In this document: one piece after another, positions 49,082 through 49,726 of the stretch
How the letters are laid out: the number at the start of each line of letters is the position of its first letter
Numbering within the stretch: position 1 is the first letter of the stretch
From: an uncultured cyanobacterium
Lineage (GTDB): Bacteria; Cyanobacteriota; Cyanobacteriia; Cyanobacteriales; CAWCAG01
Direction: 5' to 3'
DNA length: 64,000 nucleotides
Assembly: GCA_963803805.1 (NCBI GenBank)
Contig: CAWDOD010000004.1
Coordinates: forward strand, 256,001-320,000
Position numbers and translations under genes: made by a program
The notes under the pieces: generated by a model
The model's input: only the letters and a program-made list of their open reading frames with translations
The model's database searches: none
Told to the model about the DNA's origin: nothing

Positions 49082-49726
49082 CTAGGGTTTTTTGTATTTT
49101 ATCCTTAACTTTGCCCCTGCTGATGAGTTTAAACGTCCTAGTTCAAACCGATAGTTACGATGGTCAAGCATAAACTTTCTGACTAGCTTAGACTTTGCTC
49201 CACTTAATCTTCCTGGCTTTAAATAATCTTTGTATCTTTGAAGATATTTTAACTTTCTGGCAATGAAAGTTTTTTTCACTCCGTAGTTCCAGTATTTTAC
49301 TACATCGTACTTGTGTCCCATGTGAATATTACGATCAAAAGGTAGCCAACGCCTTGGCCCATTAGAGCTAGTTTTAACGTATACCTGCGGACCTTTTGTG
49401 GGATGATGCCTTGCTTTTCCTTTTTTAAACCACCGATTCCAGACCAACCTTCCTTGTTTACTATGTTTGCCAGGAGTTCTACCCATAAATGTCAATCGAG
49501 CAGAAGGTTTTTTACTACGGGGACGACCACGAGTTGCACGGCTAACTTGTCTACCTCCTTTAAGCTTCCCTTTGAAGACATTCTTTAAAAGAGGTTTCAA
49601 AAAACTAAACCGTTCCAATTGTACTTTTTCAGATTGTATTTCTTCTAGTTCCTCCGGCAAAAATTGTAAGTTTTCTAGTTCTGCTTCTGAGAACAACTCG
49701 ATTTGTTGTACCATTTTGACTGACAT
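49082..49726 (-). CDS. Acidic-leader precursor of an HNH/EndoVII (GH-E-type) nuclease toxin
   Basis: 38-aa Glu-rich leader, then FMGRTPGK.SK.GR, HMGHKYDVVKYWN, GAKS..VRKFMLD..NYRFE...NSSAGA. Confidence 0.75.
   Translation of the reverse strand: MSVKMVQQIELFSEAELENLQFLPEELEEIQSEKVQLERFSFLKPLLKNVFKGKLKGGRQVSRATRGRPRSKKPSARLTFMGRTPGKHSKQGRLVWNRWFKKGKARHHPTKGPQVYVKTSSNGPRRWLPFDRNIHMGHKYDVVKYWNYGVKKTFIARKLKYLQRYKDYLKPGRLSGAKSKLVRKFMLDHRNYRFELGRLNSSAGAKLRIKYKKP

Follow-up and report, generated by a model that had tools for sequence, protein, structure and literature searches.

We analysed a window of 64,000 nt from an uncultured cyanobacterium (assembly GCA_963803805.1, contig CAWDOD010000004.1, positions 256,001-320,000; window coordinates are used unless stated otherwise) that contains the gene for a leader-bearing nuclease of 214 residues, here called P0001. 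In this protein a short, Glu-rich leader precedes a strongly cationic remainder that ends in a predicted nuclease domain of the GH-E type, and the gene lies downstream of genes for a 175-residue protein, an S8 subtilase and a PrcB-like protein (Table 1). We find that this arrangement recurs in other cyanobacteria, that the leader is carried by many unrelated cargo domains, and that depletion of acidic residues with a doubling of Lys+Arg is the rule for these cargos, of which P0001 is one extreme.

Results

An acidic leader joined to cationic cargos

By residue count, residues 1-38 of P0001 contain 10 Glu, 2 Lys and no Asp and end in VQLE. The 176 residues that follow contain one Glu, E195 within NYRFE, together with 4 Asp (131, 141, 167 and 188), 29 Lys and 22 Arg (Lys+Arg 51), giving residues 39-214 a net charge of +46. 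Measured against 2,365 long open reading frames (ORFs) of the same genome (Glu 7.0%, Asp 4.8%, Lys+Arg 10.0%), the probability of at most one Glu in 176 residues is 4e-5 and that of at least 10 Glu in 38 is 2e-4; when the mean of 6.3% in homologous domains is used instead, the Glu count of P0001 has a probability of 1e-3. A preliminary description of this DNA, made from the sequence alone, had given the Glu and Asp counts and the VQLE end of the leader exactly. The motifs that it listed are all found (GRTPGK at 82-87, MGH at 136-138, WN at 146-147, VRKFMLD at 182-188, NYRFE at 191-195 and NSSAGA at 200-205), with its dot spacing one residue off in two places.

A word-indexed homologue search returned a single relative of P0001, the 211-aa protein P0002 (42% identity), and a HMMER search with a profile of the two matched 468 proteins at E<=1e-3. 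Among the best 150 of these 468 matches, 117 (P0001 and P0002 included) match from about residue 65 to the end, and the other 33 match only profile positions 1 to ~60-110, which form the N-termini of proteins of 75-275 aa whose remainder is unrelated. The family leader so defined is about 64 aa long, follows the pattern M..QIVEQ[IV]E[LF]FSEAELESLEF[LV]PEELE.IE.E..P[DN]L[DE]SIS[LF]E[ED][VI]A.DLEAYFEG.[IV]E.A.LE and is succeeded by basic sequence; that of P0001 is a shortened version without the second half (the P[DN]LESIS..DLEAYFE.. part). The stretch ...IQSEKVQLE-RFSFLKPLLK of P0001 aligns with ...VELE-RFGFLKRLVK of P0027, and the same motif occurs in P0067, so that the leader boundary set in the preliminary description, after residue 38, coincides with the family junction. 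The acidic N-terminal part that the preliminary description had set apart is thus a separable leader ending in LE, shared by a whole family and bounded by a family-wide junction: LE stands before the cargo in 19 of 19 cargos from the related loci described below, and in 31 of 35 leader proteins from the database (alignment A2). These leaders contain 26% Glu against 5% Asp. The cargo is net-positive in all 36 proteins first analysed, namely the 35 and the window's 175-aa protein. We found no Pfam or NCBIfam model for the leader, and no PADLOC match for canonical leader proteins.

The same leader is found on interchangeable C-terminal domains and so forms the constant N-terminus that is typical of polymorphic toxins. 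Named cargos comprise a barnase/T1-type ribonuclease (PF00545), CAP, Endonuclea_NS_2, a second GH-E domain and F-box (Pfam), and others, including Cys-rich, Pro-rich and hydrophobic peptides, have no family assignment. One F-box cargo lies at L010:3934-4428, in one of the related loci (Pfam F-box 9e-8), and F-box or CAP cargos are also found among P0100, P0065 and P0127. F-box and CAP are unusual for interbacterial toxins and, going by these domain assignments, hint at eukaryotic targets.

A conserved cassette in cyanobacteria

A pattern scan, run over one genome per prokaryotic species, gave 15 loci, all of them cyanobacterial (Nostoc, Tolypothrix, Brasilonema, Richelia, Pleurocapsa, Potamolinea and Oscillatoriales). 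In all 15, the leader-cargo gene or genes come directly after an orthologue of the S8 gene (56-66% identity) and a PrcB-like gene. Upstream of the S8 gene, 13 of the 15 loci have one to three members of the 175-aa family; the remaining two loci end at contig ends. The order of the cassette is, then, 1-3 leader-bearing basic proteins, S8 subtilase, PrcB-like protein and 1-3 leader-cargo genes, in which P0001 would be the variable terminal cargo gene. Extra PrcB sequence occurs in two loci, as a C-terminal fragment between two cargo genes in L001 (7597-7722) and as a second full copy after the cargo in L010 (4769-5155); this suggests that cassette modules have been duplicated or have recombined.

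The S8 subtilase has an intact Asp/His/Ser triad, an acidic N-terminal region with a weak match to an I9-like propeptide, and a C-terminal beta-rich domain. That its acidic N-terminus is another copy of the leader was ruled out by profile-profile comparison (probability 0.2%). The S8/PrcB-like pair gives weak matches to the NCBIfam models of PrcB and PrtP, with scores of 60.9 on NF033596 (cutoff 125) and 53.1 on NF033595 (cutoff 300), and the PrcB-like protein reaches 59 bits on Pfam PrcB_C. The 175-aa protein received no assignment from Pfam, NCBIfam or PADLOC, and the ESM Atlas gave a best score of 0.81 and no usable lead. Its family consists of 170-230-aa proteins that stand in tandem upstream of the S8 gene (for instance L001:2267-4468, L003:2221-4575 and L009:4411-5644), each with a divergent acidic leader and a conserved basic domain of about 95 aa of the pattern ..QLLKTFT.IVKKLVKKI..NP.TR.KLQAA.RKGP.AV..LLTP....LP.YFRWM.PIYVP.., followed by a variable hydrophobic or basic tail. 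Possible roles for this family include those of a carrier, a translocator or a pore.

Downstream of P0001, the 475 bp from 48607 to 49081 contain no same-strand ORF of at least 40 aa that could serve as an immunity gene, and in the related loci the gene after a cargo gene is either another cargo gene or an unrelated one. A search with the leader hidden Markov model (HMM) found a single cassette in this genome. Of 41 genomes from related taxa, one was found to carry the S8 gene, which is absent from a same-genus genome that is 98% complete. Synteny with that genome (85% identity over 44863-48723) ends at ~48723 (contig C4:304723), about 360 bp past the P0001 stop; no clean insertion boundary could be defined, as the far flank of the same-genus genome maps to another contig of this genome. 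A scan for promoters and terminators gave counts near shuffle expectation, with a single 10-of-12 promoter-like site, at 52935-52908 on the minus strand, that lies upstream of the first gene in the cassette.

Table 1. Features of the cassette, of P0001 and of the neighbouring genes, in window coordinates
Feature	Coordinates	Strand	Basis or remark
P0001 gene, leader-bearing nuclease, 214 aa	49082..49726	-	ORF translation, residue count; stop codon 49082-49084
Acidic leader, residues 1-38 of P0001	49613..49726	-	Residue count; leader HMM profile positions 1-43, E 5e-15
Cationic linker, residues 39-74 (RFSFLKPLLKNVFKGKLKGG... then Arg/Lys/Ser/Pro-rich stretch)	49505..49612	-	Residue count; AlphaFold2, low model confidence
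GH-E-like HNH/His-Me-finger nuclease domain (predicted), residues 75-214	49085..49504	-	Profile search, Pfam of homologues, AlphaFold2 model, structure search
His138 codon (GH motif, end of strand 134-138; presumed general base)	49313..49315	-	Invariant in 49- and 69-sequence alignments; model secondary structure
Glu195 codon (NYRFE; sole Glu after the leader)	49142..49144	-	Residue count, column conservation
PrcB-like protein, 125 aa	49778..50155	-	Pfam PrcB_C 3.9e-16; between S8 gene and cargo genes in 15/15 related loci
S8 subtilase, 574 aa	50161..51885	-	Pfam 3e-50; nearest structure PDB 3afg, 1.7e-40
First cassette gene, 175 aa: divergent acidic leader and ~95-aa basic domain	52048..52575	-	Leader HMM E 1e-10
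HtrA/DegP-type serine protease	47668-48606	-	PDZ domain and signal peptide
Peptidase_C39_2-like protein, 280 aa	52994-53836	+	Stand-alone, no ABC part
Caspase-like (C14) giant, 1159 aa	54011-57490	+	C-terminal hydrolase-like region
Caspase-like (C14) giant, 1498 aa	57782-62278	+	P-loop NTPase motif, long WD40-like run; PADLOC caspase and HEAT-ARM matches

Directly downstream of P0001, the syntenic stretch carries genes for DUF58-like, glycosyltransferase, ThiS and HtrA proteins. The HtrA/DegP-type protease is a chance neighbour, since it is kept in the cassette-free relative and has no tblastn match in the 15 loci. On the other side, divergent from the cassette, lies the gene for the C39_2-like protein, which is probably outside the system because it too has no tblastn match in the 15 loci. 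An AraC-type regulator adjoins the cassette in 8 of the 15 loci; its orthologue in this genome (63% identity) is found at contig C4:327305-327796, about 7.3 kb past the end of the window and about 18.7 kb from the cassette, which suggests that it was displaced by insertion of the C39-like gene and of the two caspase-like giants that lie in between.

A divergent GH-E-like nuclease domain

Residues ~75-214 of P0001 are, on the strength of profile searches and a structural model, a divergent nuclease domain of the GH-E type, with the predicted HNH/His-Me-finger fold and predicted DNase activity. The nuclease region forms the C-terminus of proteins of 120-3455 aa among the best 150 of 468 profile matches, and Pfam assigns the N-terminal parts of these homologues to RHS repeats, PT-HINT, PAAR or PAAR-like, Hcp, eCIS-core, Nuc_N and SpvB/TcdB. 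A Pfam scan of 113 domain-class matches (P0012 and P0080 were left out for size) assigned 22 of them to GH-E (PF14410) at E<=1e-3, 10 of these at or above the 25-bit gathering cutoff. Clear intermediates are P0086 and P0056, which match the P0001+P0002 profile at 2.3e-13 and 9.9e-15 and PF14410 at 33.1 and 29.3 bits. Because of these carriers and of the PF14410 matches among the homologues, we take the domain to be a polymorphic-toxin tip akin to recognised GH-E domains, as the preliminary description had proposed from its motifs; by its profile scores, P0001 belongs to a divergent GH-E-like clade and is not a Pfam-certified member. No match to P0001 was found in NCBIfam or PADLOC.

Seven residues (G82, P85, M136, H138, Y192, N200 and G204) are invariant in alignments of 49 and 69 sequences, and at column 195, 63% of 67 leaderless homologues have Glu and 15% have Asp. 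AlphaFold2 modelled the domain with a pLDDT (predicted local distance difference test) of ~97 for residues 71-214 of the full-length model and of 96.9 for the domain alone, and placed E195 within a strand (192-196) that leads directly into the helix bearing N200. An exhaustive VIA-align search with the domain model returned 18 of 48,161 PDB chains at Z>=2, the best being Vibrio endonuclease I (2vnd_A; Z 3.6, root-mean-square deviation 3.9 A over 86 residues). All 18 are nucleases or nuclease-bearing complexes of HNH/beta-beta-alpha-Me or endonuclease-I type, an assignment that is explicit in 5 of the 18 structure titles and that for the remainder is our own. They also include GVE2 and Gme HNH, VcaM4I, McrA, the ZRANB3 HNH domain, IscB and Cas9 HNH regions, and further Cap5, CAD, Hpy99I, retron HNH complexes and the C-terminal end of teneurin. 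An HNH-type fold match, which the preliminary description had proposed as a check, was thus obtained, at low Z. Foldseek gave nothing below E 0.39, its top rows being the same Vibrio endonuclease I at E ~0.4, and PDB sequence searches with P0001 and with the 49-sequence profile gave no meaningful match.

Between leader and nuclease, AlphaFold2 predicts for residues 39-58 a short, low-confidence amphipathic helix (at 41-50) that leads into a disordered basic linker. P0002 has acidic leader sequence at this place and then only ASKRRR, so that the cationic stretch is not conserved in this nuclease. A few other cargos open with similar amphipathic basic sequence (LE-RFGFLKRL in P0027 and P0067), Arg-rich openings are common, and Lys+Arg reach 29% over the first 25 cargo residues of the leader family. 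That the stretch aids membrane entry, as the preliminary description had suggested, is a guess.

Acidic residues of the nuclease and of other cargos

The Glu content of P0001 was set against that of 114 homologous domains extracted at near-full coverage (P0001 and P0002 among them), which have a mean of 6.3% Glu (range 0.7-11.5%), 5.6% Asp and 18% Lys+Arg. P0002 (1 Glu in 145) and P0001 (1 in 140) have the lowest Glu of the 114, with Lys+Arg among the highest (32% and 27%). Contrary to the refuting outcome that the preliminary description had named, leaderless homologues do not share this scarcity of Glu to the same degree. The nearest leaderless subclade (P0003, 4, 5, 7, 8, 13 and 22), which shares a long insert, already has only 3.5% Glu (39 in 1122 aa), with 3.5% Asp and 20.9% Lys+Arg. 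Against this subclade the deficit of P0001 is marginal (P(<=1 Glu in 140) = 0.043), and P0001 and P0002 form a single lineage and count as one evolutionary event.

The leader family as a whole has a similar tendency. Together, 51 non-redundant leader-family cargos (5,344 aa) contain 2.9% Glu and 2.5% Asp, each about two-fold below background, and 21.2% Lys+Arg, double the background. Some cargos retain many Glu: the RNase cargo P0051, also found in L007, has 9 Glu in 104 aa (8.7%), including an EEEE run in the linker right after the leader, and P0091 has 7.8%. Within the nuclease alignment, at least 25% of the 67 leaderless homologues have Glu at each of seven columns, of which P0001 and P0002 keep Glu only at 195. 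The replacements at the other six (P0001/P0002) are L/Q, N/N, K/K, Q/Q, L/Y and R/R, never Asp. The retained Asp 131, 141 and 188 of P0001 occupy the three most conserved Asp columns of the family.

Discussion

In this study, we describe a cyanobacterial gene cassette in which a conserved acidic leader is linked to an S8 subtilase and a PrcB-like protein, and to explain it we favour, with confidence about evenly balanced, a pro-toxin model in which the leader acts as a tag or charge mask, is removed at LE by the S8 subtilase with the PrcB-like protein, and so releases a cationic HNH nuclease. P0001 would be made as a pro-toxin, with an anionic helical leader fused via LE to a cationic GH-E-type DNase. 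The S8 subtilase and its PrcB-like partner would then remove the leader at or next to LE, and the released nuclease would attack the DNA of a target cell. The leader may mark the protein for export or targeting, mask its charge as a pro-piece so that the nuclease does no harm to its producer, or do both; a masking role would fit the absence of an immunity gene.

Several observations weigh against this reading or parts of it. In the full-length AlphaFold2 model the leader has a pLDDT of 47-73, with no support for docking onto the nuclease. No signal peptide is found in the S8, PrcB-like or leader proteins, the N-termini of which are acidic or polar, and no transporter is linked to the cassette here or in the 15 related loci. 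As for the nuclease, P0001 itself scores only 16 bits against Pfam GH-E (PF14410; E 0.019), under the 25-bit gathering cutoff, and all VIA-align scores are below Z 4, so that the weight of that search lies in its uniform list of matches and not in the scores. Finally, depletion is not perfectly even between the two acidic residues. The Glu share of acidic residues is 0.53 in leader-family cargos against 0.59 in the background (p=0.037; p=0.10 without P0001 and P0002), and the deficit of P0001 and P0002 relative to the family mean is about 9-fold for Glu and about 2-fold for Asp, so that a modest Glu-specific component may be present.

For the cassette as a whole, the chief competing explanation is an intracellular death module, a protease-gated suicide or defence system in which a stress or phage signal would free the S8 subtilase from PrcB, whereupon the leaders would be removed and the nuclease and the basic 175-aa protein unleashed in the producer itself. 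The lack of signal peptides, of a linked transporter and of an immunity gene is what such a module would lead one to expect, and the patchy distribution of the cassette among related genomes also agrees with it. The S8 subtilase matches the PADLOC 'subtilase' model at 2e-54, although this match spans only the generic catalytic domain. Two caspase-like giants adjoin the cassette in this genome, yet caspase genes are not conserved neighbours in the 15 loci, nor do these loci contain a linked sensor domain (such as STAND or Hachiman). That a protease activates a pro-nuclease is an established principle of defence (PMC12799240). However, the cargos resemble exported effectors, with GH-E and Endonuclea_NS_2 typical of polymorphic toxins and CAP and F-box beside them, and tandem variable cargos behind a constant leader are a hallmark of polymorphic toxin cassettes. 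We therefore consider the intracellular module unlikely.

The pro-toxin model has a bolder form, which we put forward only tentatively and at low confidence, namely that the cassette is an undescribed system that exports or activates swappable cationic effectors (DNases, RNases, CAP and even F-box proteins) without Sec signals or immunity genes, and that the covalently attached leader serves as antitoxin up to the point at which it is removed or shredded by the subtilase. Were this so, the F-box and CAP cargos and the Arg-rich segments after the leader would imply that the targets include eukaryotic grazers or hosts besides bacteria.

The preliminary description had explained the near-absence of Glu by selection for survival of the mature nuclease in the presence of a Glu-specific protease. 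In this explanation the processing protease cuts after Glu and shreds the Glu-rich leader, and the nuclease, purged of every Glu except the catalytic one, is spared. S8 proteases that cleave after Glu exist, an example being the lanthipeptide protease LicP. An LE junction in nearly all members would fit Glu at P1, although LE could equally be the P1-P1' of a Leu-directed cut, and the excess of Glu over Asp in the leaders points in the same direction. So does the position of P0001 and P0002 as the Glu-poorest of 114 domains, in which the surviving Glu is the motif Glu and Glu is far more depleted than Asp. Yet Glu and Asp are depleted about equally across the family, the P0051 and P0091 cargos keep many Glu, the nearest leaderless relatives are already low in Glu, and lost Glu was never replaced by Asp, contrary to what simple avoidance of Glu at constant charge would give. 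The S8 residue aligned to the Gly of TVGSP in 3afg, tentatively an S1-pocket residue by subtilisin numbering, is Thr and not basic (alignment judged by eye). We do not favour Glu avoidance, which we consider doubtful and slightly less likely than the intracellular module. That the paucity of Glu has no special meaning, being for the most part a composition inherited and then altered by drift within a single small lineage, is the least probable of the explanations: the low acidic content of the nearest leaderless subclade and the single origin of P0001 and P0002 fit it, but the two are only 42% identical and have kept the same single Glu column and lost the six others, and the cationic shift recurs across unrelated cargo folds.

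What the near-absence of Glu probably reflects, judging from these comparisons, is a general need for a strongly cationic cargo, which is in keeping with the pro-toxin model. The asymmetry between Glu and Asp in P0001 would then come from the chance that, apart from the motif Glu, the acidic positions under constraint in the family are Asp. Dispensable acidic positions would have been replaced by neutral or basic residues, with D131, D141, D188 and Glu195 remaining as the most constrained.

The leader/S8/PrcB effector cassette of cyanobacteria is apparently undescribed. Literature searches, including searches with leader motif strings, found no description of the leader or of the cassette, with most subscription journals outside their coverage. 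It is the delivery module that defines a polymorphic toxin system, and this locus presents a delivery or activation module that we did not find described in the literature searched. In filamentous and other cyanobacteria it links a conserved acidic leader to an S8 subtilase and a PrcB-like protein. Besides nuclease tips of the classical interbacterial kind it bears RNase, CAP and F-box cargos, all without immunity genes. If the leader is indeed both an address tag and a built-in antitoxin, it would represent a different answer to the problem of self-protection and a way into studying cyanobacterial antagonism or host interaction. Whether Glu avoidance or the need for a cationic cargo is the explanation, the single surviving Glu of P0001 is a clean and testable example of how a pro-peptide system shapes composition.

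Comparison with known systems

The nuclease domain itself is best compared with Tox-GH-E, for which Zhang et al. (2012; PMC3482391) list the conserved residues 'GH, E, N, E', delivery by the type II, V, VI and VII secretion systems (T2SS, T5SS, T6SS and T7SS) and PVC, and immunity proteins of the Imm-SuFu and Imm-ank types; cyanobacteria are absent from their phyletic list for this domain. P0001 shares the GH motif, the NY..E motif, an invariant Asn-Ser-x-Gly and a predicted beta-beta-alpha-Me-like fold, and its homologues share the Rhs/PT-HINT, PAAR, Hcp and eCIS carriers. In our own reading of the column mapping, G137-H138, E195 and N200 (and also N191) would correspond to the listed residues. 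With a single Glu in its nuclease domain, P0001 keeps at most one of the two listed Glu; a candidate column for the other, 181 or 193, is Leu or Arg in P0001. In contrast to Tox-GH-E, the P0001 clade has an extra N-terminal module (GRTPGK.S..G..V) and an insert of ~35 aa between the GH and NY..E strands, and P0001 rides on an acidic leader and not on a large secretion carrier, with no neighbour of the Imm-SuFu or Imm-ank type. Classical polymorphic toxin systems also differ in having an immunity gene immediately downstream, which P0001 lacks.

Three other kinds of system each share one feature only with the cassette. Leader-peptide bacteriocins and lanthipeptides, processed by LanP or C39 proteases, likewise combine a conserved acidic helical leader, a variable active part and a dedicated protease; the cassette cargos, however, are whole folded domains of 35-210 aa and not peptides, and no modification enzymes are linked to them. 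Nor does the double-glycine/C39-PCAT arrangement apply, as the junction here is LE, no ABC transporter is linked, and the C39_2-like ORF is not conserved in the 15 loci. Dentilisin of Treponema denticola (PrtP-PrcB) similarly pairs an S8 protease gene with a gene for a PrcB_C domain, whereas the pair described here scores far under the NCBIfam equivalog cutoffs and has no visible lipoprotein signal (PrcA was not searched for). Antiviral pro-nucleases (PMC12799240) are inactive precursors activated by a partner protease, with metallo-beta-lactamase (MBL)-fold nucleases, trypsin-like or caspase proteases and infection sensors. A nuclease precursor with a partner protease is what we propose for the cassette as well, which differs in its HNH-type nuclease, its S8 protease, its lack of a sensor and a leader shared by many cargo types.

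In its logic, the closest published system is the S8-PTS of Gram-positive bacteria (PMC9424270). There, toxins and S8 protease carry Sec signals, the toxins have a BetaH domain for receptor binding and are followed by an immunity gene, and basic patches are the proposed sites of cleavage. The cyanobacterial cassette has neither signal peptides nor an immunity gene, and has instead an acidic leader, an LE junction, a PrcB-like protein and an extra basic protein; BetaH was not specifically searched for, and the 36-residue linker of P0001 leaves no room for it. What the two would have in common is the central idea, a dedicated S8 subtilase encoded next to toxins with interchangeable nuclease tips and proposed as their processor.

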